Source: Candidatus Nanohalobium sp.
GTDB lineage: Archaea; Nanohalarchaeota; Nanosalinia; Nanosalinales; Nanosalinaceae
NCBI GenBank assembly: GCA_042217555.1
Contig: JBDGSL010000035.1
Coordinates: forward strand, 1-41,778
Length of the DNA: 41,778 bases
Direction of reading: 5' to 3'
Positions within the stretch are counted from its first letter, which is position 1; every line of letters begins with the position of its first letter. The notes under the pieces are model-generated. The model saw only the letters and a program-made list of their open reading frames with translations, did not search any database and had not been told where the DNA came from. Of this stretch, positions 17,441 through 40,139 are shown one piece after another. Made by a program: the position numbers and the translations under genes.

Positions 17441-17645
17441 GCCCTCATGGTCTAGCTGGAAAGACGGCACCTTGCGGAGGGACTCCTAACGCAGAGTAAC
17501 CGAAACTCTTCTGGAGTTTCTGGTGACGCACAAAATCGCATGAAGCGATTTTGGAGTCGCACACATTGAACCATTCTCAAAGAATGGCTCTTAGAAAGTC
17601 CTAGCAGATAGGTGCAGATCCGGGGTTCAAATCCCCGTGAGGGCG
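17441..17645 (+). tRNA. tRNA-Arg(GCG) with a 132-nt intron at 37/38 (17478..17609)
   Basis: Acceptor GCCCTCA/TGAGGGC, anticodon arm GCACC-TT-GCG-G|A-GGTGC, T arm TTCAAAT. Exon TTGC pairs with intron GCAG (BHB-like). Confidence 0.9.
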
Positions 17646-17669
17646 CTGGAGTTTCTGTTATAAACCCTA

Positions 17670-18205
17670 GAAACCCTTATGAGAGGGTGCGTCATGGGGG
17701 TTGTTTCACAGGGTTACGTCATGACAGCGTGGCTTCCACGGAGGGCACATTATGACCCCATGCTTCGCCCGTGGTTGAAGCAGGTATTCAGGTGTTTTCA
17801 GCCTCATAAGGCCTAAATCAGGCTGTAGATATGTCTGAATATGGTTTTTAGGTATAATTCAGATCTTACGAGGGGTCTTGAGATTAGGGGCCTCTAGAGA
17901 GGGCCTGAAAATAAGGGGTTCATGAGACCCTGGTTTAGGCTGCCCTCTCATGAGAGGTCTGCCTAGCCTCTGGTTATCTCATGAGATGTTGCTTTCAGCC
18001 CTCCCTCTATTTAGAGATGTCTGATCCTAGAGAGTCTAATTAGGTGTCTATAAGAGGTCATAGGCATCAGGGTATAGGCCCGGCCACACACCCCTCTTGA
18101 CACCGCCGTGACACAGGAGGAGGGGGTGTATAGGTGCTGATAGATACCTATAGGCGGTTTCTAGACCTCTCTTGACATTGGTGTGACATCTTTTGACACC
18201 TTTTG
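17670..18205. repeat. Array of CTCATGAG-like palindromes and TGACA direct repeats
   Basis: CCTCTCATGAGAGG, ATCTCATGAGAT, GGGTTCATGAGACCC and GTCATGAC; TGACA at about 11-bp spacing near 18098-18200. Confidence 0.65.
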
Positions 18206-19552
18206 TCATCTATTCTCGTTTAGTATGTAGTGAGTGTCACTGCCTTCTCCTCGCCTGTCTATCCATCTTTTTTCTATCAAGTTATTCAGGTCTCTTAAGG
18301 CTGTCTTCTTTGATATTTCTCCACTTACCAGTTCTTGATAATCGGAAGAAGTGATTTTTTCTGAGAAGTAGAGGTGTCTAATTGCCTTTCTCTGCCGTTG
18401 GTTGAGGTCCTGGGGTATTTCCCTGCCTATCAAGTTGACTACAAACTTCCCGTTATCGACAAAATCAGGCTTTGGATAATTCCTGTCAGTCATTTCTTTT
18501 GTTATTCTCTGTATTCCTGTCCCCATTTCTTCAGCAAGTTCCATTCTCTGCATTACACTTGCTATTGTTGGGTTTCTCTGTATTGATTCATCTTCCCAGA
18601 GGTCATCTATTGACATATTGCCTATGAGGCCTCCAGGGTTGCTTATTTCTACTCTATTAGGATATACCTTTACTTGAGTCTTTTGCCTCTGATTATGATA
18701 ATCTCTGTGCACAACTGCATTAACTAAGGCCTCTCTTAGAGCGTTGGTTGGGTACTGATTCACTGTTTCCCTACCCGTGTCTTTGACTCTTCTCTTAGAT
18801 CTGGTGTTGTCGTGGATAAAGTCTATAGCCTCAAAAACTGCTAATATAAGCGGAGAGTTAATCTCTTTCTTTTCTACCCATTCTATATCATCATCTTCTG
18901 ACTCAAAGGCTATACACTGGATTCCGGAGTTGGGAACGAATCTTTCCGGTTTAACTCCGAATAAGATAGCTCCTGCATTATTAACCTCTATTTTATCCTC
19001 CTCTGTATGTGCAAGACCTAAATGTCTAAGCATTGAATCGTTTTCAATCTCTTCTTCCGATATTTTTGCACGTTCCTGAAATCTGCTAACGGCCTCAGAG
19101 TCTATATCTTCTGGATATTGGAATCTTCTGCACTCGACTTGCTCAAAGTTTATATCTCCACTTTCTTCCATCAAGGCCCTTATTTGATCATGAGACATTG
19201 ATTGATCCACAGTGTCTTGCCTGATATAATAGCCAGAAGGGGCTTTATTCACTGCATCCTTATTTCCTTCTACATCCACGACCAACAAGCCGTCTATCGC
19301 ATCTATATTGGTGCTTAGAACACCCTCAACAGTATTTATTTCGTCTTGGACATCAGATCTTTTGTCGTTTAAATTCCATTTATCAAGTCCTGGCACTCTG
19401 CTACCATCATCTTCCAGACCAATAATAAGTTTACCTCCCTCTGCGTTAGCAAAAGAAGTAACTACCACAGCTACATCGCTTACAGAACGCTTAAACTCTG
19501 TTTTTTGATCTTCTCCAGTCTTAATAATAGCTCGTAGTTTCTCTTCATCCAT
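18206..19552 (-). CDS. AlbA_2 (Schlafen-like) + RecG_C/HATPase_c_4 + winged-helix protein
   Basis: GEDQKTEFK, SFANAEGGKLIIGLEDDG, ALREALVNAVVHRDY, RNPTIA...GTGI, TALRDLNNL...G.G. Confidence 0.9.
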   Translation of the reverse strand: MDEEKLRAIIKTGEDQKTEFKRSVSDVAVVVTSFANAEGGKLIIGLEDDGSRVPGLDKWNLNDKRSDVQDEINTVEGVLSTNIDAIDGLLVVDVEGNKDAVNKAPSGYYIRQDTVDQSMSHDQIRALMEESGDINFEQVECRRFQYPEDIDSEAVSRFQERAKISEEEIENDSMLRHLGLAHTEEDKIEVNNAGAILFGVKPERFVPNSGIQCIAFESEDDDIEWVEKKEINSPLILAVFEAIDFIHDNTRSKRRVKDTGRETVNQYPTNALREALVNAVVHRDYHNQRQKTQVKVYPNRVEISNPGGLIGNMSIDDLWEDESIQRNPTIASVMQRMELAEEMGTGIQRITKEMTDRNYPKPDFVDNGKFVVNLIGREIPQDLNQRQRKAIRHLYFSEKITSSDYQELVSGEISKKTALRDLNNLIEKRWIDRRGEGSDTHYILNENR

Positions 19553-19590
19553 ATTTCAGAACCCGTTAAAAGTTCTAAAGTATCTTTCGA

Positions 19591-19744
19591 CTATTCAGCT
19601 TCTTCCAGTTCTAAACTTCCTTTATCGGTGAGATGCCACTCCAGTTCTTCACCGTCTTCCCAACCTTTTGCATTTCTCATATTTTTTGGGAACTGTAATT
19701 GTGGCCTGATCTGTTGAGTCTTTGACTTGAAGCTTGTAACTCAT
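19591..19744 (-). pseudogene. AbrB/MazE/SpoVT-like DNA-binding protein with a +1 frameshift
   Basis: MSYKLQVKDSTDQATITVPK continues as NMRNAKGWEDGEELEW... only if one A is removed from the A6 run (19682-19687). Confidence 0.7.
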
Positions 19745-19896
19745 AACGTTATAAAGAACGTTAAAACTACTTAAATCTGGCGAGTTAATACCTATATAGC
19801 CCACTTTTGATAATAGACCGGATTAATCCCTGTGAGGGCGCTCCCGGTGTTCTTCCATCAGTTGATTTTTATTTCAGCAGGACTGGTTCTCTATTT

Positions 19897-20589
19897 ATGG
19901 CTGTGTTCAGTGTTTTGAGGGAGAGTTTTGAGTTTTTGAGTGAGCGGCCCCGTGTTTTTGTGCCTAAACTGTTTTCTACTTCTGTAAGCAGTTTTCTGAT
20001 AATCGGGTGGATGACCGGGAGGATCAGTCCTCTCACTTTTTTCCTGAGTTTTCCCTTTATAGCGGTTATCGGCAGTTTCAGCCCTGTGATGGTTTCTTCG
20101 ATGGTTGACAACGGGAGTTCTGTAAGAGGTGCGTTCCGTGATTCGTTGAAGCTATGGAGAAGCTTGCTGGGCCTCACTGCGTTGACTGTCTTACTTGCGT
20201 TTCTGAACAGTCTGCCTTTTTCCCTGGGCCTGACCGCGTACCTGTCTACCGGCGACAGTTTCTGGGTTTTACTGGGCGGAGGTGTAAGCCTTGTGTCCCT
20301 GGTGGCTATCGGTTTTGCTCTCTACTTCGTCCCCGTAACCCTCCTGAAGAAGAAGGATTTGATGGAGAGCCTTCAGGACTCTTTTAGTGTTTCCCGTCGG
20401 AACAGAGGTGAGGTACTGGGGCTTACAGTGTTCTCTATACTTGTGCTTTCCGCTGCTTCTCTGACAACCGGCTATCTCAGGGACCTGGGTCTTGCCGTGT
20501 TCTACATCGGCAGAGTGGTTTCTTCAGTGGTCGGAACGTACGTACTGGTGGTTTCACCCAGTTACTATCTTCACGGGGAAGATACATGA
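19897..20589 (+). CDS. Multi-pass membrane protein
   Basis: About six hydrophobic segments. Start placed at MAVFSVL, downstream of the att repeat. Confidence 0.75.
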   Translation: MAVFSVLRESFEFLSERPRVFVPKLFSTSVSSFLIIGWMTGRISPLTFFLSFPFIAVIGSFSPVMVSSMVDNGSSVRGAFRDSLKLWRSLLGLTALTVLLAFLNSLPFSLGLTAYLSTGDSFWVLLGGGVSLVSLVAIGFALYFVPVTLLKKKDLMESLQDSFSVSRRNRGEVLGLTVFSILVLSAASLTTGYLRDLGLAVFYIGRVVSSVVGTYVLVVSPSYYLHGEDT

Positions 20590-20927
20590 TGGAGATAGAG
20601 CTGTCAGACAGAGAGATAGAGGTGGAAGTCGCCAACACAGCTTTAAAACGTGGCCTGGGCCTCTCACTCAGGAGTAAAGGCAAGATGCTTTTCGTTTTTC
20701 CGTCGGATACACGGGCACCTATCGACATGATGCTGATGAGGAAAAGCCTCCACCTGTACTTCATGGACTCTAGTGGAGAGGTCATACATGTCAAGAAAGC
20801 GGAGCCCTGGTACCGGCTTCCAGAAAAGTTCTTTCACAGGCCTGAAGAGAAGTACAGGTACCTGCTGGAAAGCTTTGAAGATCTGGAGATAAGAGAAGGT
20901 GACCGACCGGATTTCAAGCTGATTTAA
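20586..20927 (+). CDS. DUF192 family protein
   Basis: VEVANT..KR..GL, MLFVF, YLLE pattern. Confidence 0.8.
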   Translation: MMEIELSDREIEVEVANTALKRGLGLSLRSKGKMLFVFPSDTRAPIDMMLMRKSLHLYFMDSSGEVIHVKKAEPWYRLPEKFFHRPEEKYRYLLESFEDLEIREGDRPDFKLI

Positions 20928-20950
20928 GCTTTTACTTTTCACTTAGTGAT

Positions 20951-21625
20951 ATGGAGCTTTCAAAATTCTGTCCAAGGTGCGGAGAGGAAACAGAGAAGCT
21001 TTACGGCGAGAAAAAGCAGCTGTGCGCCGAATGCTTCCCTGAGAAGAACAGTCTGCTCGACATCCCCGAAGAGGTAGAGATCAAGATCTGTTCGGTCTGC
21101 GGAAGAATGGCGCACCACGGAGAATGGGTTGAAGAGTACACAGTACAGGAACAGATCGGTCTCGCGTTCTCTGACTTCGCAGAGGAAGACGTGAGGATGG
21201 AGCTGCAGTACTGGGAAGAAGATGAGGACATGTTTGTACGCGTACACTCGTTCAGAGATGAGATACATGATGATGCCGATACCATGCTTGAATTCCAGGA
21301 AGTTCAGTGCACTGAATGCTCAAAGTTCAACGGAGGATTCTTCAAGGCCAAAATACAGCTGCGAGGCGACAACCTGGAACCTGTATCCGAAGCTATAGTG
21401 GACAAAGCCGCAGAACTTACAAATGAGAACAGGAAGGACTTCCTGTCCAACGTAGAGGAAAACGACCACGGCTACGACTTCTACCTGTCGACAGAGCCTA
21501 TGAACAAGAAAATACTCGGCATGCTCCGCGACCGGTTTGACCCTGAAATCCAGAGAAGCTACGAACTGATCGGAGAGGAGAACGGAGAAGAAGTCTACAG
21601 GAACGTCGTATCAGTAAGAGTCTAG
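20951..21625 (+). CDS. nmd3: NMD3 family ribosome biogenesis protein
   Basis: Four CxxC pairs (CPRC, CAEC, CSVC, CTEC), KIQLRG, and a C-terminal YRNVVSVRV. Confidence 0.88.
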   Translation: MELSKFCPRCGEETEKLYGEKKQLCAECFPEKNSLLDIPEEVEIKICSVCGRMAHHGEWVEEYTVQEQIGLAFSDFAEEDVRMELQYWEEDEDMFVRVHSFRDEIHDDADTMLEFQEVQCTECSKFNGGFFKAKIQLRGDNLEPVSEAIVDKAAELTNENRKDFLSNVEENDHGYDFYLSTEPMNKKILGMLRDRFDPEIQRSYELIGEENGEEVYRNVVSVRV

Positions 21626-21649
21626 AAACGTGCCTGGCCACCTTATTTT

Positions 21650-21977
21650 TTCTTCAAGACTGGCCGAATGTGACCTCCTCTCCTACCTAAGCCTTCGGCT
21701 GAGGAAGGAGCTTCCAACCCATTCACACAACCAGCATCCAAGATTAGTGCCATGTTACACAGTTGGTCTATCTTGGGAAAGCACGGCTTTCCACTCTTTG
21801 CAGGTTTCCAACTCGCTAAAAACCGACTTGCTACACAGAGGTCGGGGTTCAACACGTTGGATCTAGGGTTCGGTCACAGGAACCCTGTTCCGAACCTTGC
21901 CACATATTCAGAGCGACAAAATCTGTTGCCCGAACACTCGGCTGTCCGAACTTGGTATATAGGCTCGGAACCTATGG
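21650..21977 (-). ncRNA. Putative structured non-coding RNA (unassigned)
   Basis: End-to-end helix plus at least five hairpins with G-U pairs on the minus strand; TATA-like element upstream; no plausible acidic ORF. Confidence 0.6.
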
Positions 21978-21994
21978 TGATAATATAATGGTAA

Positions 21995-22010
21995 GAAAAA
22001 CTTATAAAAA
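21995..22010. promoter_or_regulatory. Bidirectional BRE/TATA-like promoter
   Basis: GAAAAACTTATAAAAA on plus, TTTTTATAAG on minus, between the putative ncRNA and eIF1A. Confidence 0.5.
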
Positions 22011-22098
22011 TAAAGCCAATTCATCCCCTACCTATCGGAGAAAGGAAGAGGACTTCTCGGCAACGAAAGTTAAAAAGGTTGCACGGGAAATCTCAGTT

Positions 22099-22413
22099 AT
22101 GAGCGATCAAGATGGAGAAGAAGATATAGGCCGTGTAAAAACACCGCGTGGAGACCAAGTACTCGGAATCGTACTGAGAAAGGAAGGCGGTGGAAAATAC
22201 AGAGTCTACTGCACAGACGGCAACAAAAGAATCTGCCGCATCCCAGGAAGCAAGAAGAGAGGCCTATGGGTCAAGAGAGACTCAGTAGTCCTGGTCGAGC
22301 CGTGGGATATCCAGGGCGACGAGAAAGGCGACATAGTAGAGAGCTATTCCCAGGCACAGACAGAATGGCTTGAAGACCGCGACTACCTCGACGAAATCTC
22401 AGAATTCCTCTAA
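22099..22413 (+). CDS. eif1a: Translation initiation factor aIF-1A
   Basis: VYCTDGNKRICRIPG, WVKRDSVVLVEPWDIQ..KGDI. Confidence 0.93.
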   Translation: MSDQDGEEDIGRVKTPRGDQVLGIVLRKEGGGKYRVYCTDGNKRICRIPGSKKRGLWVKRDSVVLVEPWDIQGDEKGDIVESYSQAQTEWLEDRDYLDEISEFL

Positions 22414-22530
22414 ATTTATGGATTGGAGAAGAGTTTATACGGAAAGTTTAACATCCTTTGTTCTTGTTTTCTAGTTTTGTAATCTTGAAACCAACAACTT
22501 ATTTGGCAGTTCTGTTCTAAACCAGATTGT

Positions 22531-23295: not shown

Positions 23296-23349
23296 GAGAA
23301 CCTCTATCCGGGATTTCAGGTATAAAAAGGTTGGGAAGATGTTTTGTAC

Positions 23350-23853: not shown

Positions 23854-23872
23854 CTGGAGGGAAAATTATACT

Positions 23873-26800
23873 ATGGCAAACGGAGTAGATCAAGGCATGG
23901 AGTCTGAAAGCGGAGATCACAGAGAGATCTCCGTTGCAGAGTTCTTCGAGAAGAACAAGCACCTTCTTGGATTTGAAAACGCTCAGAAATCAATTATAAC
24001 TGTTGTTAAGGAAGCTGTCGATAACTCACTTGACGCATGTGAGGAAGATGAGATCCTGCCTGAAGTACAGGTGATAGTAGACGAGTACGACGATGGAAAA
24101 TGCCGTGTGGAGATCAGGGATAATGCTATCGGCCTGGATAGAGAAACAATTCCAAAAGTATTCGGTAAACTGCTGTATGGAAGCAAATTTCATAAGCTGC
24201 AGCAGTCTCTTCTACCTGATCAAAAAGTTTTTGTCCGTAAGGATGGGGAAACGCAGCTAATTGAGATAGGACAGCTTTGCGATGAAATTATAGGGACTGA
24301 TGAAGGTGAGAAAACAGAAAAGATCAATCAGGATATTGAGGCGCCTTGTTTCAACAGAGAAAACGGTGACATCACATGGCAAAGTGTAACACATGCTATT
24401 AGGCACGAAAACAAGAATGAAACATTCAAGATTGAAACTTCAAGAGGAAGAGAAATAGAAGTTACTGGGAACCACAGCTTGTTTGGGCTAATAAATGACG
24501 GTGAGATAGAAGAAATAGAGGCATCCAACCTAGAAGAAGGGGACACAGTGCTTTCCCCTCAGAAACTTCCGAACAAAGGAGATAAGCACTCTCTCAATGT
24601 TCTTTCACAGTTCAAGGCTGATGAAGTTGAAGACTTACGGTGGTATGTATATGGCGTTTCAGAAGAAAAGCTTCAAATAATCAAGGATGAAGGAGAAAAG
24701 GTTAGGAAAAAGCCTTCACCAGATTCAAGGAAGAGAACCTATTACAGGTATAAAGGAGTAGATATTCTAAAGGATAGCCTAGAACAGAATTATTTAGATC
24801 AAGAATACTTGCCTGCTGAAAAAATTCTCAGGCTTGGATGGGAAAAAGAAATAGAGAATGGAAAATTGAGAACCTACAAAGTAGATGGAGATCAAACAGA
24901 GATACCTTTAGAAATCGACTTAGACTCAGAGTTTATGAGGTTCTTAGGGCTTTTCACAGCAGAAGGACATATAGACGAAAGACAGGTGGGATTTACCTTC
25001 GGAAGCCATGAGCAAGAGCTTGTCTCCGAAGTAAAACAAACCGCAGAACAAAAACTACAGATCTCAACCACTGTAAACCAAAGAGAAAGTAATTCCACCA
25101 GAGTCAAATTCTTCGGGAGCACTGTAGTCAAACTTATGGAGAAGCTCTGTGGCAGAGGTGCTCAGAACAAACATGTTCCAAACTTCGTATTTGATACAAC
25201 GGAACAAAACCAGAAATCATTCCTTAAAGGACTTATAGACGGTGACGGAAGCACATCACATCCTGGAAACGAAGTCACTCTTACCTCAACCAGTAAAAGA
25301 ATGGCTCAGCAAGCATCATACCTGTTTAACACTCTCGGCGTAGTCTCAAGTTGGAAGGAACGGAAAATCAATTCCAACATATCAAATGGAGAGACAGTTA
25401 CATACGATGTGCTTATCCACGGAGAAGACCTAGAGGAATTAGACTTTGAACATGATACAGAAAGAAAATCAAATTACAAAATGCTGCCAGCAGACCTAAT
25501 GGAAGATTTAGGAGTTAAAGAAGTAGATGCCACGAGAGTTAGACCTGACAAGGCAGGTCTCTATTATGCAGCAGGACTAGGCAGTCAACCACAGTTTGCA
25601 GAGAAATTTGTTATGAAGATTGAGAAAATTAAATCTGGCGAAAAAGTAGAAGAAGACTACTACCTTAAAGAACTCAAAGAAAGAAACCTCATTAGCAACC
25701 AAAACACCCTAACTAATAGAATGCAGAAAATAGAGGAAAGAGTCGAGAATCTGCTAGAATTCAGTGAATCAGACCTATGCCTACTGGACGTAAAAAACAT
25801 AGAAAAAACAAAATCACCAGAGTACGTCTACGATATATCCGTACCAGGAACAGGCACAGATGAAAACTTCATAGCAGGAAATCAAGGCGCACTATGCGTC
25901 AAAAACAGTAGAGGGCAACAGGGAATCGGTATCTCCGCTTCCGCAATGTATGCCCAGTTGACGACAGGTGAGCCTGTAACAGTCTACTCGAAGCAGGAGG
26001 GAGAGCCATGCCACAAGTTCGTTGTAAGAATCGACACGGAGGAGAACGAACCTGAGATCCTCGAAGATGAAGTCATAGAAGGTAGCGACGACAGATTTCC
26101 TGGCGAGAAAGACTACTACTTCGACCACGGTACCACTATTGAGATGAAGATAGAGGCCAAGTACACCCGTGGACACCACTCCGTACGCAACTATCTGAAG
26201 CATACGGCGATCATGAACCCGTACGCAAGGATAGTATTGAGAGAGCCAGACGGAAACAAGATCGAGTATCCACGTGTGTCGAAAGAGCTTCCCGAGAAAC
26301 CGAAGGAGATCAAACCTCACCTGCACGGAGTAGAGCTTGGAGTGGTTATGAGGATGCTGGACAACAGCAACGCAAGAACAATCTCCAGCTTCCTCCAGAA
26401 CGAGTTCACCCGTGTCGGAAGAACATCCGCAGAACAGATACTGGAAGAAGCAGAGATAGACACAGGTCGAAGACCTAACACGCTTGACAAAGATGAAATC
26501 GAGCAGATCCTGGACGCAGCACAGGAAGTCAAACTACAGTCACCGCCAACAGACTGCCTGTCACCGATAGGAGAAGACCTGATGGAGAAAGGACTGACAA
26601 AAGAGCTTAATCCAGAGTTTACAGAGACAATTACGCGTAAACCTACTGTTTACAAAGGTAATCCTTTCCAGGTAGAGGTTGGACTGGCCTGGGGAGGCGA
26701 CATAGAAGACGAAGGAAGCTACAACGAGCTGAGATACGCCAACAAAGTACCCCTACTTTACAAGAAGTCCGCGTGTGTTACAACAAAAGCTATCGAGAAC

Positions 26801-27166
26801 GTTTCCTGGAACCGTTACAACATTTCACAGACAGGAGACAGGCCGCAGGGACCGCTCTACATCTCCATCCACATCGCATCGGTCTGGGTACCGTTCACAT
26901 CAGAAGGAAAGGAGGCTGTCGCAAACTACGACCCGATAAGAAAGGAGATGAAGCTGGCACTGCAGGAAGCAGGCAGAAAGCTTGGAAGATACCTGAAGAG
27001 AAAAGAGAGAAAAGAGATTCAGGAGAAGAAGAAACGCCAGCTAACCTCCTACGCAAAAGAGATGGCACCGGCCATCGCCCAGCTAGCAGAAGAAGGAGAC
27101 GAAGAAGAGATGGAAGACAAAATCCAGCAACTCGTACAGAACGACTACAACCCGGAGCAACTATAG
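23873..27166 (+). CDS. top6B: DNA topoisomerase VI subunit B, intein-containing
   Basis: SVAEFFEKNKHLLGF, KEAVDNSLDACE, LYGSKFH|SRGQQGIGIS, RYANKVPLLY, VPFTSEGKEA. Confidence 0.97.
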   Translation: MANGVDQGMESESGDHREISVAEFFEKNKHLLGFENAQKSIITVVKEAVDNSLDACEEDEILPEVQVIVDEYDDGKCRVEIRDNAIGLDRETIPKVFGKLLYGSKFHKLQQSLLPDQKVFVRKDGETQLIEIGQLCDEIIGTDEGEKTEKINQDIEAPCFNRENGDITWQSVTHAIRHENKNETFKIETSRGREIEVTGNHSLFGLINDGEIEEIEASNLEEGDTVLSPQKLPNKGDKHSLNVLSQFKADEVEDLRWYVYGVSEEKLQIIKDEGEKVRKKPSPDSRKRTYYRYKGVDILKDSLEQNYLDQEYLPAEKILRLGWEKEIENGKLRTYKVDGDQTEIPLEIDLDSEFMRFLGLFTAEGHIDERQVGFTFGSHEQELVSEVKQTAEQKLQISTTVNQRESNSTRVKFFGSTVVKLMEKLCGRGAQNKHVPNFVFDTTEQNQKSFLKGLIDGDGSTSHPGNEVTLTSTSKRMAQQASYLFNTLGVVSSWKERKINSNISNGETVTYDVLIHGEDLEELDFEHDTERKSNYKMLPADLMEDLGVKEVDATRVRPDKAGLYYAAGLGSQPQFAEKFVMKIEKIKSGEKVEEDYYLKELKERNLISNQNTLTNRMQKIEERVENLLEFSESDLCLLDVKNIEKTKSPEYVYDISVPGTGTDENFIAGNQGALCVKNSRGQQGIGISASAMYAQLTTGEPVTVYSKQEGEPCHKFVVRIDTEENEPEILEDEVIEGSDDRFPGEKDYYFDHGTTIEMKIEAKYTRGHHSVRNYLKHTAIMNPYARIVLREPDGNKIEYPRVSKELPEKPKEIKPHLHGVELGVVMRMLDNSNARTISSFLQNEFTRVGRTSAEQILEEAEIDTGRRPNTLDKDEIEQILDAAQEVKLQSPPTDCLSPIGEDLMEKGLTKELNPEFTETITRKPTVYKGNPFQVEVGLAWGGDIEDEGSYNELRYANKVPLLYKKSACVTTKAIENVSWNRYNISQTGDRPQGPLYISIHIASVWVPFTSEGKEAVANYDPIRKEMKLALQEAGRKLGRYLKRKERKEIQEKKKRQLTSYAKEMAPAIAQLAEEGDEEEMEDKIQQLVQNDYNPEQL
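24206..25906 (+). mobile_element. 567-aa intein with a LAGLIDADG homing endonuclease in Top6B
   Basis: Starts SLLPDQ; block B VTGNHSLF; LGLFTAEG and FLKGLIDGDG; ends VYDISVPG..NF...CVKN before the extein Ser. Confidence 0.93.
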
Positions 27167-30324: not shown

Positions 30325-31551
30325 CTAGAATTCTGGTTGTATTCCTTTTTCATGAATTTGATGTGCTGTGGCTACGATATTGTGGCATAGTATTTTGAGT
30401 AGTGTTTCGTTTAGTTGGCATCTGTGTTTTTTGCTGTTTATGTCTTCGCCGAACTTCTCCTTAATCATGTGGAATACTGTCTCCGAATTGCTTCTTTTGT
30501 GGTAGTGGTCTCTGAATTCCTCTTTATTGTACTGAAACTTGTGATACATTTTCTTCCAGGCTTTACAGCCTTTGCTTTTTCCTGTTGTGTTTTTTCTGAA
30601 TGGTATGTATGCTTCTCCGTCTAGGTCTTCTACTAGTTGATAATTTTCTCGGCTATTGTATGCTTTGTCAGCGCTGACTTCATCTATGTTAAATTGCTCT
30701 GCTGTTTTTTCTACAAGTGGCTTGAATTGTGGGCTGTCGTGCTTATTACCCTTTGTCAATTCAACTCCGGTCACAATATTAGTTTTTACACCTGAAATCA
30801 GGTGTGCTTTTATCCATTCTCTTACTTCTCTTTCTTCTCCGTGTTTGTGGTTAAAGTATTTGCCGAAAGTAGATGTGCTGAAACCTGAACTGTCTACTGC
30901 GAATTCAGTTTCTATGGTAGTTAGTGGTGAAGCTGACTTGTAGATTAGTTCTTCTAGTTTTTCTGTTATTTCTGGTTTTTGTAGGTAGTGGCTGATTGTG
31001 TTGTAGGCACAAGTGTCAGTTACTAAGTCTTGCTGTTCTGCTCTTTGTTGTAGTGATTCATATCTTCTTAGAGAGAAGCCTGTGTATACTTTGAGTGCTG
31101 AGTGGAATATCATGCTGCCTAAGTCTTTTCTAGGCCGTCCGTTGCTTTGTTTTTGGTTTTCTATGTTTTGTGTTAGGTCTGATAGTAGTTGTAGGAAGTG
31201 TTTGCGTTCTTTTGTTTGTGATTGGTTGTAGGCTGTCCAGTTTTGACTGTATGAATCTTCAGCTCTTTCTCTAATTTCTTGTTTGTCTTGTTTTTGTGCT
31301 TGTTGTGTTAGTATTAGTTCTACTGCCCAGATATGCTTACATTTTTCATTTTCTTTTGTATGGTCGTGGCATGTGCAGCTCCATTCTTTTCCGGTTTTTA
31401 CAGTGTATTCTTTGTTTTTTGTGGTTTGGCTTGGTACTTTGAAGCCGTCTGTGGTTCTGTTTATTTCGTTGTTTTGTGTTAGTAGGTGTCCTCGTTCTTT
31501 GCGGTTGAGTTTGGAGAGTATTTGTTTTTGTGTTACCACTTTGTTCGACAC
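30325..31551 (-). CDS. Transposase: SWIM zinc finger + IS4/IS5-like DDE domain
   Basis: CTCHDH...CKHIWA (SWIM); AVDSSGF, SADKAY, YHKRSNSETVF. Confidence 0.9.
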   Translation of the reverse strand: MSNKVVTQKQILSKLNRKERGHLLTQNNEINRTTDGFKVPSQTTKNKEYTVKTGKEWSCTCHDHTKENEKCKHIWAVELILTQQAQKQDKQEIRERAEDSYSQNWTAYNQSQTKERKHFLQLLSDLTQNIENQKQSNGRPRKDLGSMIFHSALKVYTGFSLRRYESLQQRAEQQDLVTDTCAYNTISHYLQKPEITEKLEELIYKSASPLTTIETEFAVDSSGFSTSTFGKYFNHKHGEEREVREWIKAHLISGVKTNIVTGVELTKGNKHDSPQFKPLVEKTAEQFNIDEVSADKAYNSRENYQLVEDLDGEAYIPFRKNTTGKSKGCKAWKKMYHKFQYNKEEFRDHYHKRSNSETVFHMIKEKFGEDINSKKHRCQLNETLLKILCHNIVATAHQIHEKGIQPEF

Positions 31552-31638
31552 CCTGTTGTGTATCGTTGTATATACAAATTGTTGGCTAAGCCTTATAAAG
31601 GTATCTAATGATATACTTGTATATCGGTGAATTGGGTT

Positions 31639-31773: not shown

Positions 31774-31968
31774 AAAAGCTGTCTTTCTTAGCACCTTGTT
31801 TTAATTTTTTGGTTTTGCTGGGTTCTCTGAAGGTTGTTTTGGGCTTTTTGAACACAGAGTCAAGTTTTTGAACACGACCCGCTTTTTGAACAAAGCCGGA
31901 TCTTCCCTTTTCGAACCGGTCTCCAATCCATTAAAAACATTTTCTCCCCTCTTACATTACACGGCGTT

Positions 31969-32113
31969 GCCCAAGTAGCTCAGTAGGTAGAGCGCCACGC
32001 TGTTAGGGACTCCTGACGCGGAGATCCACACGCGTTAAACCATGCCTTCGGCATGGCTTCCAAATAATCCGACAGTTACGTGGTGGTCCCAGGTTCGAAT
32101 CCTGGCTTGGGCG
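31969..32113 (+). tRNA. tRNA-Asn(GTT) with a 72-nt intron at 37/38 (32006..32077)
   Basis: Acceptor GCCCAAG/CTTGGGC, CCACG-CT-GTT-A|A-CGTGG, TTCGAAT. CTGT/ACAG forms the BHB central helix. Confidence 0.92.
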
Positions 32114-32223
32114 TAGAAAGCCTTTTTCTACTTGTGCCTTGGTTTAGCTTTTTTTGGTGTCTCTGCTGTATTGTACCTGGTTTTTTTTATGTAAAGTGTT
32201 GGTAAGTTGTTTCTGTGGTGTCT

Positions 32224-32646: not shown

Positions 32647-32658
32647 AGAAGAGGTGTT

Positions 32659-33477: not shown

Positions 33478-33589
33478 TATTTCTTCACCTGTAGAAAAAA
33501 GTTCTGAAAACCAGCTTTTAATGATTGACATCACCTGACGGAAAAACCCGGCACCACTCATACTTCCTGAGACCTAGTCCTGTATAGGT

Positions 33590-34609: not shown

Positions 34610-34794
34610 GGGAAAGGTATGGCGCCATATTTTTTATGGGTTTTACAGCAGGTCCGAGAAGTCTATGCGGCTGGACGCCTAGCACCAGGAGAGATAAGGT
34701 TGAACATCAGGCGCAGGGACGCTATTAAAAAGTTTCATAAGAACTTCAACATCACAGACGGAGAAATGTCCGAACATATAGGGAAATGAGCTGA

Positions 34795-34868
34795 GGACCG
34801 GTAGCTCAGCCTGGGAGAGCGCTTGACTGAAGATCAAGTTGTCCCCGGTTCAAATCCGGGCCGGTCCA
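34795..34868 (+). tRNA. tRNA-Phe(GAA), intronless
   Basis: GGACCGG/CCGGTCC acceptor, CTTGA-CT-GAA-GA-TCAAG anticodon arm, TTCAAAT. Confidence 0.95.
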
Positions 34869-34882
34869 AACAAATTTTTTCT

Positions 34883-34929
34883 GGAGAGCGCTTGACTGAA
34901 GATCAAGTTGTCCCCGGTTCAAATCCGGG
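34883..34929 (+). repeat. 47-bp duplicate of the 3' part of tRNA-Phe
   Basis: Identical to 34814-34860; lacks the 5' acceptor strand. Confidence 0.9.
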
Positions 34930-35085
34930 ATCGGCCATCTCTTCGAACTGACAATGCCCGTGATTTGAAGCAGCAGAAAACTGTCAGGTTTTCAAGTTCA
35001 AATCCAGGCATGTCATATCAGTTTTTCTTCTCAAAAACCCCTTCCTGCAAAGGGTTTTTATAGTTGTTATTTGTGAGTGGTGATT

Positions 35086-35400
35086 ATGATTGGGCCTGGG
35101 CGTACGTCTATAAGAAATGAGACGTATCTGGTAGAGTCGAATCTTGAAGAAGTAGAGGAAGCATTTGAGGGTTATCTTGAGGGGCTTGAGGACGAGATGG
35201 AAAATGTTGAAGCTGTCGAGTCAGAAGAGGATTACAGTTTCAATGCTGCAGGTTCTCGGGTCAATATCTCTTATGGCCTTGATGAGTTTAGAGAAGGTAC
35301 GAAGATAGAGATGGAGTTCTCCGGGGCCGGTCCTGTAGTTGACCGTTTTTACAACCATTTCTCAGATGCGTGGACCAGTGGTTCTCTCAGCGATATCTGA
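35086..35400 (+). CDS. Hypothetical acidic protein
   Basis: Acidic ORF with a GGTGA RBS and a TTTATA upstream. Confidence 0.6.
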   Translation: MIGPGRTSIRNETYLVESNLEEVEEAFEGYLEGLEDEMENVEAVESEEDYSFNAAGSRVNISYGLDEFREGTKIEMEFSGAGPVVDRFYNHFSDAWTSGSLSDI

Positions 35401-35607
35401 CTACCACGGGTCGTGTTCATAACCTTTTTCTTCGGCTCTTTCAATCATTTCTTCTTCGTCTGCTTCCTTGACCGGTGCTTTCTGCCAGTCCTCGAAGTCG
35501 TCGTTCATCTTTTCCGTGGCCTCCGCCTCCTCCTTACTCATGACAGAGACGTTGGCAGTTTCATCGTTGTAGATCTCAACTATCCAGTAGTTATCTTCCT
35601 CCCCCAT
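35401..35607 (-). CDS. Small acidic hypothetical protein
   Basis: 68 aa, halophilic composition, GAGGT RBS. Confidence 0.65.
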   Translation of the reverse strand: MGEEDNYWIVEIYNDETANVSVMSKEEAEATEKMNDDFEDWQKAPVKEADEEEMIERAEEKGYEHDPW

Positions 35608-35743
35608 AGCCAGTACCTCAACAGAAAACCAGTTAAACCTCGAGCTTTTTTAAACAGTCCACCGAACCAGAAAAACAACCCTCAGTAGTTTGTGACCAAA
35701 ACATACTCACACTTTAAAAAGTTTGTTATTTGTTGGTTGGATT

Positions 35744-36766
35744 ATGAGCACAGACAACGAAGAAGTCGGCAGTATAGGAGACAAACTTAAAGGAGTTTTT
35801 GGCCGTAATAATGGCTCTGAAAGGGTTGAAAATGTTGAAAATCTGGTTGAGGATCCTGAGAACTGGTTAAACCCTAGAGAAGATAGTGAAAAGATCTTCA
35901 GGAAAAATGTTTCTCCAATGGTCGGACAGGAGATAGATGAAGATGTTTTGAGGAAGAGAATAAGTGATCTGGAGGAAACAGCTGAGGATACTTACTCCCA
36001 GATGCTTAAAAAGAGTCCGTTGGATGCAGAGGTATATAGAGAGACGTTGGAAACAGCAGGGATTGGTTTTAACGCAGAGGATGCTGTTAAGTCACGTATA
36101 GATGAACTTGTGTCCAAGGGAAGCAAGAAAGATTTCAAGGACGCGCTTGCTGTTGCTGAGAGTGTTGAATATGAGATCACGCTGAGTGATCAGGACAAGG
36201 AAGTGTATGAGAGTTTGGATGAGTTCTCTGAGAACAGGGATCTGGTTCAGCAGCTTTCGGACAAAGTTTTCGAAGACCTGGAAGGTGAAGCAGCTGCTTT
36301 CTTCGACGCTGCAAGGGATGAGAGCCGGCCGGAAGGCATGCATAAGTCTTCAGCTATAGAAGATGCTGACCCGGCTGACGGGTACAGCAGTGAAGAAGCA
36401 GTCAGAGGGATGATAGAGGAAGCAATGGAAAGCTTTGAGAACCTGGAGCACGAAGACATTGAAGACATGGTTTACGACAGGGAAGATGATATTCCTGAAG
36501 CACTCAGCCTGAGAAACCAGGAAGAAGGCCCTGTTAAGGCCCATAATCTTGCATACAGGTTTGACCTGGATGAAAAGGAAGAATACCGGGACGAAGCTCT
36601 TGAAGCCCTTGAAGAAACATACAGAGAACTGGAAAACTTAAAGAAAGATGCAGAAGGGTTCGAAGAAACCGTGGAAACCGCTGTTGAGAAGTCGCCTGGC
36701 TTCCAGGGCCCTGATATTGGAGATTCAAGTGAAGTAATATCTAATCTAGAGGCAGGACAGGATTGA
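35744..36766 (+). CDS. Acidic helical hypothetical protein
   Basis: Long E/D-rich ORF; TTTAAAAA about 25 nt upstream. Confidence 0.7.
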   Translation: MSTDNEEVGSIGDKLKGVFGRNNGSERVENVENLVEDPENWLNPREDSEKIFRKNVSPMVGQEIDEDVLRKRISDLEETAEDTYSQMLKKSPLDAEVYRETLETAGIGFNAEDAVKSRIDELVSKGSKKDFKDALAVAESVEYEITLSDQDKEVYESLDEFSENRDLVQQLSDKVFEDLEGEAAAFFDAARDESRPEGMHKSSAIEDADPADGYSSEEAVRGMIEEAMESFENLEHEDIEDMVYDREDDIPEALSLRNQEEGPVKAHNLAYRFDLDEKEEYRDEALEALEETYRELENLKKDAEGFEETVETAVEKSPGFQGPDIGDSSEVISNLEAGQD

Positions 36767-36888
36767 GTACATTGAAGGACAGAAAGAAAATGTAGACAAG
36801 TTGGTGCAGGGAGTGAAGAGAAAGTATTCAGATGGTATACGGGAAAAACTCCCTGTATAATCTTTTCCTCCTGCATGTTATCTTTCTA

Positions 36889-38544
36889 CTACATTTCTTC
36901 CAGCGGTTCGAGACCCAGTAGTTCAAGGCCCTGGTCTGTAACCTGTACAAATGACCGGACAAGCTTCACTCTTCTCTTTTCCACGTTTTCTTCTACTCCT
37001 GTCACCTGGCAGCTGTGGTAGAAGCTGTTGAACTCTTCTGAAAGGTTTGAAAGGTAGTTAGCGATCTTGGAAGGGTCTCTCTTTCTTGATGCTGCTTCAA
37101 TTTTCTCAGGGAATTCGGAAAGCTTCTTGACCAGGCGGTACTCCTGTTCCTCAAACTCTCCGATCAGCTCTCCGGCTTTATCTGTTTCCTCCAGTATGCT
37201 CTTGGCTCTTACGTTCGTGTACTGTAGGTAGGGACCTGAATCTCCCTTGAATGAGAGGGCTGTATCCCAGTTGAACTCCATGTCTTTTTTCCTGGAAACC
37301 TTGAGGTTGCTGTATTTTACGGCGCCTATCCCTATCTCTTCAGTGTTTTCCAGTTTCCTGTCCATCTCTTCTTCTGCTTTTTCCTCTGCAAGTTCAATTG
37401 CTTTCTCAAATATCTCTGACTGCTCTATGATCAGGCCTTTACGTGTCGACATGCTGCCTTCGGGAAGGTTAAGCATGCCGTACGAGATATGTTCTGATCC
37501 TTCCGTGTCTATACCCATCTCGTCCGCTATTCTGAACAACTGTTTGAAGTGTAGTTCCTGTTCACTGGCCACTACGTACAGGTTGTAGTCGAATCCTTCC
37601 TCATTCCTCTTCTTCAGGTTGTAGAGGTCTCTTGTTATGTACAGAGTGGATCCATCGTCTTTCAGCAGGACTACACCCGGCATATCCTCTTCTTCAAACT
37701 CGTAGAACACTGATCCATCCTCATCTACCTCTATCCTGCCTTCTTCAACCCATTCCCTGACAAGCTGTCTGGCATCCTCATACACTTTGGATTCACCGGT
37801 AATCCTGTCAAACTCTATTCCCAAGCGGCTGTACTCATCCTTGTGGTACTCCAGCGTAGCTTCCCTGAACTTCTCCCATAATCTGACGGCTTCATCATCT
37901 CCTTCCTCAATCTTCCTCGCCCATTCCTGGGCCTCTTCCTCTATCTCAGGGTTTTCCTCAGCCAGTTCATGGAACTTTACGTAGATATCAAGCATGTATT
38001 CGACAGGTTCTTCTTCGAACTCACTATCTGAGTCAATGTTCTTGTGGCCGTAGATCACTTTTCCAAACTGTGTGCCGAGATCCCCGATGTAGTTCTCCGC
38101 CGTCACATCGTAACCTGTGAAGGACAGTATCCGGCGCAGAGAATCTCCCAGTACATTGTTCCTCAGATGCCCCACGTTCATAGGCTTGGCGATATTAGGC
38201 GAGGAAAACTCCACAAGCACCCTTCCCTGCTTCTGCTCCACCCCGAAACTGTCGGAATCAAGCATCCGAAAGACCTGTGAAGCATACTCCAGACGGTCAA
38301 GATGAAAGTTCAGGTATCCCGGTCCGGCCACGTCAACTTCCTCAACCAGTTCACTCTGTCCAAACTTTTCTGCAGTTTCCTCCGCCAGTTTACGTGGATT
38401 CTCTCCCAGCTCAGAAGCGGCCTTCATAACAGGGTATGCAAAGTCTCCGTGCTCCGGTTCAGGCCTCTCAATATCTTCAACTGTTACTTCTGTTCCAAGT
38501 TTTTCCGAGAGCCGGGAAGCCAGTTCCTTTTTGATCTGCTTCAT
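36889..38544 (-). CDS. argS: Arginine--tRNA ligase
   Basis: HGDFAYP, AGPGYLNF, EFSSPNIAKP, DGSTLYITRD, MSTRKG, GDSGPYLQY. Confidence 0.97.
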   Translation of the reverse strand: MKQIKKELASRLSEKLGTEVTVEDIERPEPEHGDFAYPVMKAASELGENPRKLAEETAEKFGQSELVEEVDVAGPGYLNFHLDRLEYASQVFRMLDSDSFGVEQKQGRVLVEFSSPNIAKPMNVGHLRNNVLGDSLRRILSFTGYDVTAENYIGDLGTQFGKVIYGHKNIDSDSEFEEEPVEYMLDIYVKFHELAEENPEIEEEAQEWARKIEEGDDEAVRLWEKFREATLEYHKDEYSRLGIEFDRITGESKVYEDARQLVREWVEEGRIEVDEDGSVFYEFEEEDMPGVVLLKDDGSTLYITRDLYNLKKRNEEGFDYNLYVVASEQELHFKQLFRIADEMGIDTEGSEHISYGMLNLPEGSMSTRKGLIIEQSEIFEKAIELAEEKAEEEMDRKLENTEEIGIGAVKYSNLKVSRKKDMEFNWDTALSFKGDSGPYLQYTNVRAKSILEETDKAGELIGEFEEQEYRLVKKLSEFPEKIEAASRKRDPSKIANYLSNLSEEFNSFYHSCQVTGVEENVEKRRVKLVRSFVQVTDQGLELLGLEPLEEM

Positions 38545-38598
38545 AGATGAGCTTTCCTGTAAAGCTTCAAAACAGTTAAACACCAAAAAAGTGAGAGT

Positions 38599-39372
38599 TC
38601 AGTCAGAGTCAACAACCTGTGTCAGTCTCTCCAGGATATTCCGTGCGTTCTCCACAGTCCTCCCACCCCTGTCAAACTCCGGCGCCACCTCCACCAGGTC
38701 AGCATGGCCCGGATGCACCTCTCTGATAACTTCGTACACCTGTTTCATAGATAGCCGGCCGTCCGGATAACCGGTACCAGGAGCTTCACCTCCTTCCAGG
38801 ACATCGATGTCCACAGTTAGATAAACAGGATGGCCGAAGTCATACTCCTCCAAGAACCCAGACACCTCGTCAGACCTGTACACCCTGAGATCATGTTCCC
38901 TCAGGAACTCCCTCTCATCTTCATCAATTCTGGTAACCCCAACAAAAACTATCTCATCCTCAGAAAAGTAGTTAAGAAGCTCCCTCACCACGACATCATG
39001 GCTTACATGGCCATCAACCTTCTCCTTCAAGTCCAGATGAGAATCAAGCCACACCAGCTTCAAGCCAGGATTTTCCTCCTTCAACGCCTTCAAAACTGGA
39101 AAACTAACTGAATGATCTCCACCGATCGAGATAACCGGTTTACCGTACTCAGTTAATCCTCCAGTATTATCGTAAATCCTGTCGTGCGTCTCCTCAAGAT
39201 CAAACTCATCGGGAAAAACTTCATCTATAAACAATGTTCTTCCAGGTTCGAACCCTTCCATTATCTCTTCTGGAGCGTTAAGCGTTCCTTTACGCGGATT
39301 GCGGTGTATACCCATGTCACAGGGAACTTTCTGGATTATTGCTTCGGCTTCTTTCGGACTATTAGTTTTCAT
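38599..39372 (-). CDS. Agmatinase/arginase (ureohydrolase) family protein
   Basis: GGDHS, DSHLD, TVDIDVL, APGTGYP, DLVEVAP. Confidence 0.9.
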   Translation of the reverse strand: MKTNSPKEAEAIIQKVPCDMGIHRNPRKGTLNAPEEIMEGFEPGRTLFIDEVFPDEFDLEETHDRIYDNTGGLTEYGKPVISIGGDHSVSFPVLKALKEENPGLKLVWLDSHLDLKEKVDGHVSHDVVVRELLNYFSEDEIVFVGVTRIDEDEREFLREHDLRVYRSDEVSGFLEEYDFGHPVYLTVDIDVLEGGEAPGTGYPDGRLSMKQVYEVIREVHPGHADLVEVAPEFDRGGRTVENARNILERLTQVVDSD

Positions 39373-39471
39373 TCTCTACCCCTGATATCTTTCAAATACA
39401 CTCACACACCCTATTTGGGGCATGCAATGCACGCCCTCCTTGCCGCTTCTCCGGAAGAGGAGAGACTTGCT

Positions 39472-39895
39472 GTCAACTACCCTGGCCTGAAGGACAGGGC
39501 TTGTGATTGAGGTGGAAACCAAATCCTATGCAAATACAACACAATTTAATTACCAGTCGGCTCGAAGAACTTGGAAACAGAACTTCTTTCCAGAGGTTCT
39601 TACTCATACGCCGCTGATTCAAAGGTCAGTTGACCGTGACCTTTGCGTTGAAAGAACAGAACAAGGTTTCAATCGTTCTGTCAACCCTCACGAGTATGCT
39701 TTTGCCTTCAACGCAGAATTTCAGGTTTTCAGATACGGAAGCGTATCTCCGAAAAGCTGTTTTCATCTGCTTCCGCAGATGTGCCTTTGTTCGGAAGCTA
39801 ACCGTTCAAACCTATTGACTGAAAACAAATACTCCGCAGAATTTAAAAAACTCAGCTCGTTTCCTCTCCAAGCTAAACCACGGAGTCTCCACGAG
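39472..39895. mobile_element. Non-autonomous IS200/IS605-like element with a hairpin-rich interior
   Basis: Left end GTCAACTACCCTGGCCTGAAGGACAGGGCTTG; degenerate right end CTCGTTTCCTCTCCAAGCTAAACCACGGAGTCTCCACGAG; no transposase or nuclease ORF. Confidence 0.6.
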
Positions 39896-39959
39896 ATAAA
39901 AGGATGAGCAGCAAACTCTACCGAGTATGCTGCGGCGTGTCGACCTGAGCGTAACGAGT

Positions 39960-40139
39960 CGGACCCAGAGGGATTTGAACCCTCGACAACGAGATATCTG
40001 TGGCGGTAAAAACTCTCCCAACATTGAAAACCATCGGAAGATGGTTTGTTGCGTTGGCGTAGCTTGAAACCACTTAGCGGTTTCTCTGCGTAACACGCCT
40101 TAGAAGTCTCGCGCTCTGTCCAGGCTGAGCTACGGGCCC
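39960..40139 (-). tRNA. tRNA-Arg(TCT) with a 105-nt intron at 37/38 (39996..40100)
   Basis: Reverse complement: GGGCCCG/TGGGTCC acceptor, CGAGA-CT-TCT-A|A-TCTCG, TTCAAAT. Confidence 0.9.

Follow-up and report, generated by a model that had tools for sequence, protein, structure and literature searches.

The stretch of DNA analysed here (the window; 41,778 nt) is contig C29 of the 1.31-Mb genome of the archaeon Candidatus Nanohalobium sp. (G000; 88 contigs, 94% complete), and the sequencing runs that match it are of salt-lake metagenome DNA. Its deoxyhypusine synthase shares 97% identity with the enzyme of a Candidatus Nanohalobium metagenome-assembled genome, and the matches ranking next come from Nanohaloarchaea. 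Four tRNA genes were called in the window with ARAGORN, introns allowed, and three of them contain introns of 132, 72 and 105 nt at position 37/38: tRNA-Arg(GCG) (gene 17441–17646, + strand; intron 17478–17609), tRNA-Asn(GTT) (gene 31968–32114, +; intron 32006–32077; Rfam tRNA score 59.8 bits) and tRNA-Arg(TCT) (gene 39960–40139, −; intron 40100–39996; 44 bits). The fourth gene, tRNA-Phe (34795–34868), is without an intron. The same three introns had been reported in a first-pass annotation of this DNA, and a reading of the coordinates agrees with the ARAGORN calls. Removal of the insert at 37/38 leaves a cloverleaf tRNA in all three cases (ARAGORN), and the Rfam tRNA model spans two of the three. 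Genome-wide, an insert of 33–268 nt is found in 35 of the 42 ARAGORN calls, a few of which are doubtful. Each of the window introns is built around a copy of one non-coding two-hairpin unit, here termed the cassette, which also occurs beside tRNA ends and gene ends and is the subject of this report.

The cassette consists of a first hairpin (H1; 5–6 bp stem, loop G-UUACGC-U), two to three further bases, the linker ACGCAA and a second hairpin (H2; 8–10 bp). H2 begins directly or one base after the linker and often reads AAGCCAU(G/U)C..G(C/A)AUGGCUU, which corresponds to the block AACCAT..ATGGYT pointed out at first pass; the AACCAT-hairpin-ATGG(C/T)T arrangement is indeed present in all three window introns. 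Long forms of the cassette finish with YUGAUGAU and a third hairpin, CGAACUU-UCAG-AAGUUCG. Within tRNA gene spans, the string GTTACGC occurs nine times, eight of them in sense, against an expectation of 0.37. For searches, a covariance model of H1 and the linker (R1) was built from nine compact G000 copies. Copies with hairpins nested inside H1 score poorly with this model or are missed by it.

In the window, the most compact copy is that of the tRNA-Asn intron. Its H1 and linker (32005–32038, +) have the stem CUCC/GGAG, the loop UGACGC and the linker ACACGCGUU, and are matched by R1 with 31.8 bits (E = 3e-5; genome-wide E = 2.6e-4), while its H2 (AAACCATGCC-TTC-GGCATGGCTT; 32037–32059, +) was recognised from sequence and fold. 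This is a variant of the genus, also seen at locus L155, the tRNA-Arg(GCG) intron of the same-genus genome G002, in which loop and linker have both changed (UGACGCG and CGCGUUA; window 32013–32038, +). The two pair over 7 bp in the minimum free energy (MFE) structure of the Asn intron, whereas loop and linker of the phylum consensus are not complementary. The tRNA-Arg(GCG) intron of the window carries the same variant in a further decayed state, and its H1 is interrupted, after the loop and ahead of the 3′ strand, by a nested 55-nt double hairpin. Its degenerate H1 block (GGGACTCC-TAACGC-AGAG; 17479–17496, +) is missed by R1 and was identified by sequence and by alignment to the Asn and G002 copies. 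The nested double hairpin (GAAACUC..GAGUUUC, linker UGGUGACGCA, then CAAAAUCGC..GCGAUUUUG; 17497–17553, +) is followed by a degenerate linker GCACACATTG and H2 (AACCATTC-TCAAA-GAATGGCT; 17559–17590, +), which rest on sequence and alignment, H2 being paired in the MFE structure. The Asn intron aligns to both ends of the Arg-GCG intron, and the sole 58-column gap in its row is the nested double hairpin, to which most of the additional length of Arg-GCG is due. The 5′ blocks of the two introns, described at first pass as nearly identical, are equal at 16 of 18 positions.

The intron of tRNA-Arg(TCT) belongs to a second stem class (GGCGU/ACGCC), which it has in common with Val and Glu introns and with a copy in the related genome G051. 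Its H1 region (40046–40102, −) begins its loop with GUUACGC, contains an inserted hairpin, AAACCGC-UAA-GUGGUUU, and ends in the linker AACGCAA; R1 gives 20.1 bits (E = 0.023) with the insertion included. H2 (AAACCATC-TTCC-GATGGTTT; 40028–40047, −) was again assigned by sequence and fold, and the string GTTACGCAGAG quoted earlier for this intron is present. A fourth window copy lies in the trailer of the same gene and starts from the last bases of the tRNA (39902–39963, −): an H1 with loop GUUACGCU, a linker ACACGCC, H2 and then CCTTTTATC. It is matched by R1 at 39930–39963 with 35.6 bits (E = 3.5e-6) and folds better than shuffled sequence (z = −2.8). The three introns are alike beyond chance, with pairwise local alignment z-scores of 5.9, 4.1 and 4.0 that were equalled by 0, 1 and 2 of 500 shuffles. 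As had been proposed, their size differences come from inserted hairpins, namely the pair nested in Arg-GCG and the one extra hairpin in Arg-TCT. The Arg-GCG intron, a Thr-CGT intron (C50) and a Val trailer (C31) all carry this nested pair at one and the same place and with an identical internal linker, so the long form has itself been copied. A 136-nt insert in a tRNA call at G000:C27:61643–61866 (−) starts and ends with inverted copies of one module (a GAACUU..AAGUUC hairpin plus AUCAU / AUGAUGAU), so that the intron ends could form one long helix.

Guide RNAs of the box C/D or H/ACA type may be encoded in long archaeal tRNA introns, an example being that of tRNA-Trp in Euryarchaeota, and the length of the present introns, together with C-box-like strings in the Trp and Met introns of G000, would suit this explanation. 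The first-pass annotation had seen no box C, and TGATGA is in fact found in none of the three window introns. No snoRNA-type family was matched at E ≤ 1 between 17300 and 40300, and at E ≤ 5 the seven copy loci searched gave only a chance-level sR5 row away from the cassette. Since the same block is also found in trailers and 3′ untranslated regions (UTRs), a guide function is extremely unlikely, and guides of both types are excluded as far as can be judged from sequence. No Rfam family of any kind matches the cassette at the gathering score in the window, at E ≤ 1 in 17300–40300 (tRNA only) or at E ≤ 5 at the seven copy loci.

The anticodon arms with their introns fold better than shuffled sequences (z = −5.8 for Arg-GCG, at −57.1 kcal/mol; −2.5 for Asn; −5.9 for Arg-TCT). 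The canonical splice motif is a 4-bp helix with a 3-nt bulge on either side, in which the splice sites lie. Splice motifs can be drawn by hand in two of the three: nucleotides 32–35 pair with intron positions −6 to −3 as UUGC/GCAG in Arg-GCG and as CUGU/ACAG in Asn, in both cases with 3-nt bulges. The MFE structure of Asn contains a near-canonical motif, in which the helix CUGUU/GACAG is accompanied by the bulges UUA (3 nt) and AG (2 nt), while that of Arg-TCT shows only a relaxed motif with a 3-bp helix and 2-nt loops. In Arg-GCG, intron nucleotides 2–7 (GGGACU) can pair with AGUCCU near the intron 3′ end, and this outer splice-motif helix is present in the MFE structure. In both Arg-GCG and Asn, the intron start, which forms the 5′ strand of H1, also pairs just before the splice-motif helix, so that H1 and the outer helix of the splice motif compete for this one strand. 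The genome encodes one splicing endonuclease, EndA (PF01974, 91.7 bits; 190-aa open frame; C3:54531–54812).

Comparison of the copies shows that the structure of H1 is maintained. In the alignment fitted to the model, 98.1% of H1 cells are paired, against ≤44% in slid controls, and none of 500 shuffles reaches the observed values. All six H1 pairs covary, with changes on both sides (109 cells). Pair types comprise 432 Watson-Crick, 26 G.U and 4 A.C, an imbalance from which it follows that the helix is selected in the depicted strand, be this RNA or single-stranded DNA. Loop and linker are near-invariant (74–80 of 80 distinct rows at 13 of the 14 positions counted), a figure that is partly built in and inflated because the hits were selected by R1. 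A hairpin of at least 7 bp follows within 3 nt of the linker in 67 of 80 copies, against 14.6% of random genome windows and 14.5% of shuffles, and the orthologous Thr-TGT introns of G000 and G002 differ by a compensatory G-C to U-A change in H2. In ten non-intron copies, H2 is directly followed by a T-run. Proposals that H1 mimics a T-arm or an anticodon arm, or that its loop forms a pseudoknot with downstream sequence, were dropped, as there was no consistent complement.

This pattern of conservation is what would be expected of a cis-acting RNA signal used by the host, with a conserved protein binding the UUACGC loop and ACGCAA linker on introns, trailers and 3′ UTRs. Such a signal might mark or hold the discarded piece, serve as a boundary or chaperone element, or provide a 3′-end structure, with copies having spread secondarily. 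The near-invariant loop and linker, the covarying H1 pairs, the excess of G.U over A.C, the regular presence of H2 and the T-runs behind it all speak for this explanation. We know of no protein that binds the cassette, which counts against it, as does the window copy in tRNA-Arg(GCG), which has lost the consensus and yet persists. Taken with the distribution and positions described below, a host signal is a serious candidate that we nonetheless regard as somewhat unlikely.

R1 finds 11 compact copies in G000 at E ≤ 2.6e-4, the nine training copies and two new ones. Five lie at intron starts (Val, Thr-TGT, Gly-TCC, Glu-CTC and Asn), one lies in the leader of tRNA-Ile, two in the trailers of tRNA-Arg(TCT) (window 39963–39930) and tRNA-Arg(TCG), and one is antisense against the 5′-end of tRNA-Met. 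Of the remaining two, one is immediately downstream of a stop codon with a T-run behind it (C46), and the other lies between two open reading frames (ORFs; C7). Among 61 related genomes, 36 have an R1 match at E ≤ 0.01; by family, with G000 excluded, these are 24/36 in f1, 1/1 in f2, 4/10 in f3, 6/8 in f4 and 0/5 in five others. Within its own phylum, 38 of 70 genomes have a match at E ≤ 1e-4. At E ≤ 0.01, none was found in 121 genomes of another archaeal phylum, nor in 101 genomes of the class that holds Halorubrum, for which part of the candidates from a first look were scored; this class contains the usual hosts of these organisms. A strict pattern had no match in viral contigs. A loose pattern matched at least 120 stretches, and none of the 80 loci listed passes R1 at E ≤ 0.001, so these matches are attributed to chance. 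The restriction to one phylum would suit a lineage-specific factor and hence a host signal, while the low number of copies (1–11 per genome), the choice of tRNAs, which differs by genome, and the lack of a match in 32 of the 70 genomes count against such a signal.

The positions of the copies were surveyed in the surroundings of 70 matches in relatives together with those of G000, giving 84 matches and 81 distinct copies. Inside tRNA inserts, at the intron start, lie 33 of the 81; a further 17 follow a called tRNA 3′-end, five are antisense against a tRNA 5′-end, three are in sense in leaders and 23 are elsewhere. The last group includes about eight behind copies of tRNA 3′-ends and seven at stop codons of long ORFs, where the stop lies before the cassette or within the H1 stem. 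Two of the three sense leader copies stand behind partial tRNA copies. In all, 48 of the 81 distinct copies are outside introns, and their presence in trailers, antisense in leaders and at stop codons indicates that the family reaches well beyond introns. Copies outside tRNA genes, which the first-pass annotation had thought worth seeking, thus exist; its proposal of a mobile family spreading among anticodon loops stands insofar as a real family has been copied between different tRNA genes, and is not supported insofar as the family is not specific to introns and is equally common outside them.

The cassette abuts an end of an RNA or gene, be it the 5′ splice site, the tRNA 3′-end, the tRNA 5′-end (antisense) or a stop codon, and its orientation and spacing are closely constrained in introns and trailers. 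All 33 intron copies are in sense, and in 32 of them the loop UU lies 4–12 nt past the 5′ splice site, the 33rd being a non-canonical Glu-CTC insert with doubtful called borders. All 17 trailer copies are likewise in sense, with 3–7 nt between the last tRNA base and the loop UU, so that the final tRNA bases either belong to the H1 stem or mark where it begins. One side of the outermost H1 pairs is made up of the terminal host bases (the discriminator, nucleotides 36–37 or the stop codon), to which the 3′ strand is matched. In several genera, the cassette is found again in introns of the same tRNAs, namely Lys-CTT, Ala-CGC, Trp and Val-GAC. Strict sense orientation and recurrence at the same tRNA both favour a host signal. 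Beyond the survey, four more intron copies and three more antisense leader copies were found, bringing the latter to eight. These eight keep the motif as well as the sense copies do, although any RNA made there would carry the complement, which tells against a host signal and argues that the cassette is read as DNA or that its orientation follows from the insertion process.

The regular spacing also raises the possibility that the cassette is a cleavage site, i.e., a self-cleaving RNA or an endonuclease target cut at the 5′ base of H1 and thereby producing the 3′-ends of tRNAs and mRNAs as well as 5′ splice sites. This explanation draws on position, together with the conserved unpaired linker that adjoins the H1 5′ base. 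It meets several difficulties. No Rfam ribozyme family was matched in the window at the gathering score, in 17300–40300 at E ≤ 1 or at the seven loci at E ≤ 5, and the CUGAUGA of the long form is not accompanied by the other elements of the hammerhead core. A hammerhead formed by this CUGAUGA and the adjacent hairpin was considered and rejected, because the bases that follow belong to the host repeat and vary. At five loci (L007, L022, L028, L078 and L081) a stop codon lies inside the H1 stem, and the message would lose it if cleaved at the stem base. The antisense leader copies do not fit, and with genes for RNase Z and EndA present, neither tRNA cut needs a new activity. A cleavage site is accordingly regarded as very unlikely.

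Occupancy of the intron sites differs between close relatives. In tRNA-Arg(GCG), the G000 intron (cassette with nested double hairpin, 132 nt) has a counterpart of the same architecture in G002 that is 87% identical while the flanks do not align. Of the other two same-genus genomes, G001 has an unrelated 72-nt intron and G003 a 184-nt cassette with other nested hairpins; G004 has no intron and G007 a compact cassette. In tRNA-Asn, the 72-nt compact cassette of G000 contrasts with unrelated introns in G001 (~26 nt), G002 (~53 nt) and G003 (~59 nt), none is present in G004, and G007 again carries a compact cassette. In tRNA-Arg(TCT), G000 has the cassette with one nested hairpin (105 nt), and G001, G002 and G003 have introns of another family. 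None of these three genomes has a counterpart of the window copy in the trailer of its tRNA-Arg(TCT).

Several findings show that copies pass from one type of tRNA gene to another. The window Asn intron and the Arg-GCG intron of G002 have the derived variant (loop UGACGC, linker ACGCGTT) in common, and with the Arg-GCG intron of G000 also sharing it, the variant must have been transferred within this lineage from one of these tRNA types to the other. The anticodon loops of Asn and Arg-GCG need nearly the same intron 3′-end (ACAG and GCAG, respectively). A stem variant, GCCTC/GAGGC, is common to a Val-GAC intron and to Ala-CGC introns from two families, and similar intron sequence extends across isoacceptors of G000 (Arg-GCG, Asn, Arg-TCT, Val, Thr-TGT, Thr-CGT, Gly-TCC and Glu-CTC). 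Possible marks of insertion were found outside introns. A direct repeat of the host end, 14–37 nt long and located 43–95 nt after the linker, flanks 12 of 79 copies, all of them outside introns. At tRNA hosts it spans the T-loop to the 3′-end, and at two gene hosts (L034:1330–1540, −, and L036:1380–1540, −) the last 6–13 codons and the stop are repeated downstream of the cassette. Genome G051 contains tandem arrays (L173 and L174–L177) with a period of ~100–116 nt, each unit of which comprises a copy of a tRNA-like 3′-end, a cassette and further hairpins.

Four lines of evidence favour a small mobile cassette that persists at sites from which it can be disposed of: close relatives differ in site occupancy, copies have passed from one tRNA type to another as well as between introns and trailers, hairpins are nested, and host ends are repeated or stacked in arrays. 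We therefore read the cassette as a small mobile DNA element that is removed from the pre-tRNA as the passive cargo of a protein-spliced intron, and assign this reading a probability of about 0.55. Movement would occur at the DNA level, with no enzyme of the cassette's own, and the invariant loop and linker would be a site recognised by some conserved host factor. A copy at 37/38 would survive only where the intron 3′-end can pair with nucleotides 32–35 into a splice motif, and such a constraint would account for the move from Arg-GCG into Asn, given that the two anticodon loops call for nearly the same 3′-end. Selection may keep each inserted piece self-folded, so that the pre-tRNA still folds. 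Disposal would be by splicing in introns, for which EndA is encoded, and by end processing in trailers, leaders and 3′ UTRs.

A number of observations weigh against a mobile element. No terminal inverted repeats are seen at the cassette, and direct repeats are variable in length and limited to the 12 of 79 copies noted above. The G000 copies have diverged from one another and so give no sign of a recent burst. The near-invariant loop and linker in otherwise variable sequence (a contrast inflated by the choice of hits with the model), the sense orientation in introns and called trailers, the G.U excess in H1, recurrence at the same tRNA in several genera, and the 87% identity of the G000 and G002 Arg-GCG introns between unalignable flanks all fit an RNA used by the host. 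Selection alone fails to account for the fact that trailer copies always start at the tRNA end, and mobile cargo offers no account of why copies adjoin RNA and gene ends so exactly or why the repeats vary. In addition, no mobilising enzyme that was sought follows the cassette: a Y1 transposase (PF01797) was found in 5 of 61 genomes, a TnpB domain above cut-off in 13 and a reverse transcriptase in six, compared with 36 of 61 for the cassette, and none of the three tracks it across these genomes.

The Y1 enzymes deserve separate mention, as the cassette might be a palindromic element of the repetitive extragenic palindromic (REP) type or one derived from IS200/IS605 elements (a palindrome-associated transposable element, PATE), which a Y1 (HUH) transposase would mobilise in single-stranded form. 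Conserved-loop hairpins, strand-specific structure and extragenic positions are features of such elements, and G000 has one Y1 transposase gene, which stands beside a TnpB-domain ORF (C11:15334–16575, +) in an IS200/IS605-type unit. Against this stand the presence of Y1 in only 4 of 36 cassette-holding genomes, the lack of a Y1 match in seven single-contig genomes that hold the cassette (G003, G004, G009, G017, G020, G021 and G033), the lack of an R1 match on C11 and the want of a fixed target motif before the copies. The PATE explanation is already weakened by these results, and we consider it highly improbable. REP elements and bacterial interspersed mosaic elements (BIMEs), which occur with REP-associated tyrosine transposases (RAYTs), are short extragenic palindromic repeats of bacteria that often lie just past stop codons. 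Likenesses to the cassette are the short extragenic hairpins past stop codons, the conservation of structure over stem sequence, and the modular, nested build. Unlike them, the cassette is not tracked by Y1/RAYT transposases (5/61 versus 36/61 genomes), has only 1–11 copies per genome, abuts tRNA exon ends and sits in introns, and keeps its loop throughout the phylum rather than within one species.

Two reverse-transcriptase genes are present in G000 (C75:52121–52726, −, and C38:1357–1950, +), and no cassette copy was found at these or at the Y1/TnpB unit. In the window, a DDE transposase ORF (PF01609, 408 aa; 30325–31551, −) lies ~400 nt upstream of tRNA-Asn, and no cassette-like inverted repeats surround it. 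The cassette was also considered as a miniature inverted-repeat transposable element (MITE) of a DDE transposon; this was rejected, as the ends of the long form (H1 and CGAACUU..AAGUUCG) are not inverted copies of each other and the repeats are of 14–37 nt in only 12 of 79 copies.

Integrative elements that target tRNA genes duplicate the tRNA 3′-end at their borders. The cassette resembles them in the direct copy of the T-loop-to-3′-end segment that flanks some copies and in the stacking of arrays at tRNA ends. It differs in its size (~65–130 nt) and lack of an integrase, in its use of many tRNAs as well as gene ends, and in its repeats of 14–37 nt. A bolder version of mobility would make the UUACGC cassette the vehicle by which tRNA introns of Nanohaloarchaeota are created and enlarged, as an enzyme-less unit that host machinery acting on RNA or DNA ends joins to tRNA nucleotide 73, exon nucleotide 37 or stop codons, after which it is fixed in DNA. 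We hold this to be a long shot, quite unlikely at present; if true, it would be a kind of mobility not yet described, with the birth of introns caught in the act.

The closest precedent is found in Thermoproteales, in which tRNA introns have been transposed among isoacceptors (Fujishima et al., 2010, as cited in the portions consulted of PMC4090602 and of preprint 10.64898/2026.10.13.758758). As far as those portions describe them, these introns share with the present ones related sequences across isoacceptors, gain and loss between close relatives, and splicing by the bulge-helix-bulge (BHB) endonuclease, which limits the survival of copies. The present case departs from the Thermoproteales introns so described in that its copies share a defined unit, the two-hairpin cassette with invariant loop and linker, in that this unit extends through an entire phylum, and in that it occurs outside introns (48/81) no less often than inside them. 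The consulted part of PMC4090602 gives archaeal tRNA introns as 11–129 nt long with medians of 12–25 nt, compared with 72–132 nt in the window and up to 268 nt in G000. From the same part, the box C/D guide in the tRNA-Trp intron of Euryarchaeota is alike in being a structured, conserved RNA element in a long tRNA intron, and unlike in that the window introns have no C/D boxes or kink-turn signature and that the cassette is not tied to one tRNA and occurs also outside introns. The route by which archaeal tRNA introns arrive is still described as open in the consulted part of the preprint (10.64898/2026.10.13.758758). Kaneta et al. (2018), in the parts consulted, predicted tRNA genes in one nanohaloarchaeon and linked DPANN endonucleases with an extra loop to disrupted tRNA genes; the shared motif is not mentioned in those parts. 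Among titles and abstracts on tRNA introns or palindromes of Nanohaloarchaea and on MITEs in archaeal tRNA introns, none describes the motif, subscription journals being mostly outside the coverage.

The cassette has been seen in four states, namely inside introns, at the intron 5′ edge, beside tRNA ends and beside gene ends, some of the copies with host-end repeats. It is thus a traceable unit for following intron gain, growth by nesting, and replacement, and its 14-nt invariant signature offers a handle for finding a binding partner. If the cassette is mobile, it shows one way in which archaeal tRNA introns arise and grow. The cassette is, moreover, the reason that most tRNA genes of these organisms escape standard tRNA finders.

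Other features of the window and genome are of separate interest. LAGLIDADG_3 has 19 matches in G000, mostly in open frames of >600 aa that look like inteins. Two of these matches lie at window positions 24929–25441 (+) inside a 1097-aa ORF (23873–27166) that is likely to contain an intein. Between the 3′-end of the large subunit (LSU) rRNA and tRNA-Arg(TCT), at 40405–40729 (−), is a candidate RNase P RNA; its match to the full RNaseP_arch model reaches 41.9 bits (E = 1.7e-10) and so falls short of the gathering score, 84. Downstream of tRNA-Phe, at 34869–34935 (+), a T-run is followed by a partial copy of this tRNA that extends from the D-arm to the T-arm and has a changed acceptor end, with a below-threshold Rfam tRNA match of 23.4 bits at 34882–34929.

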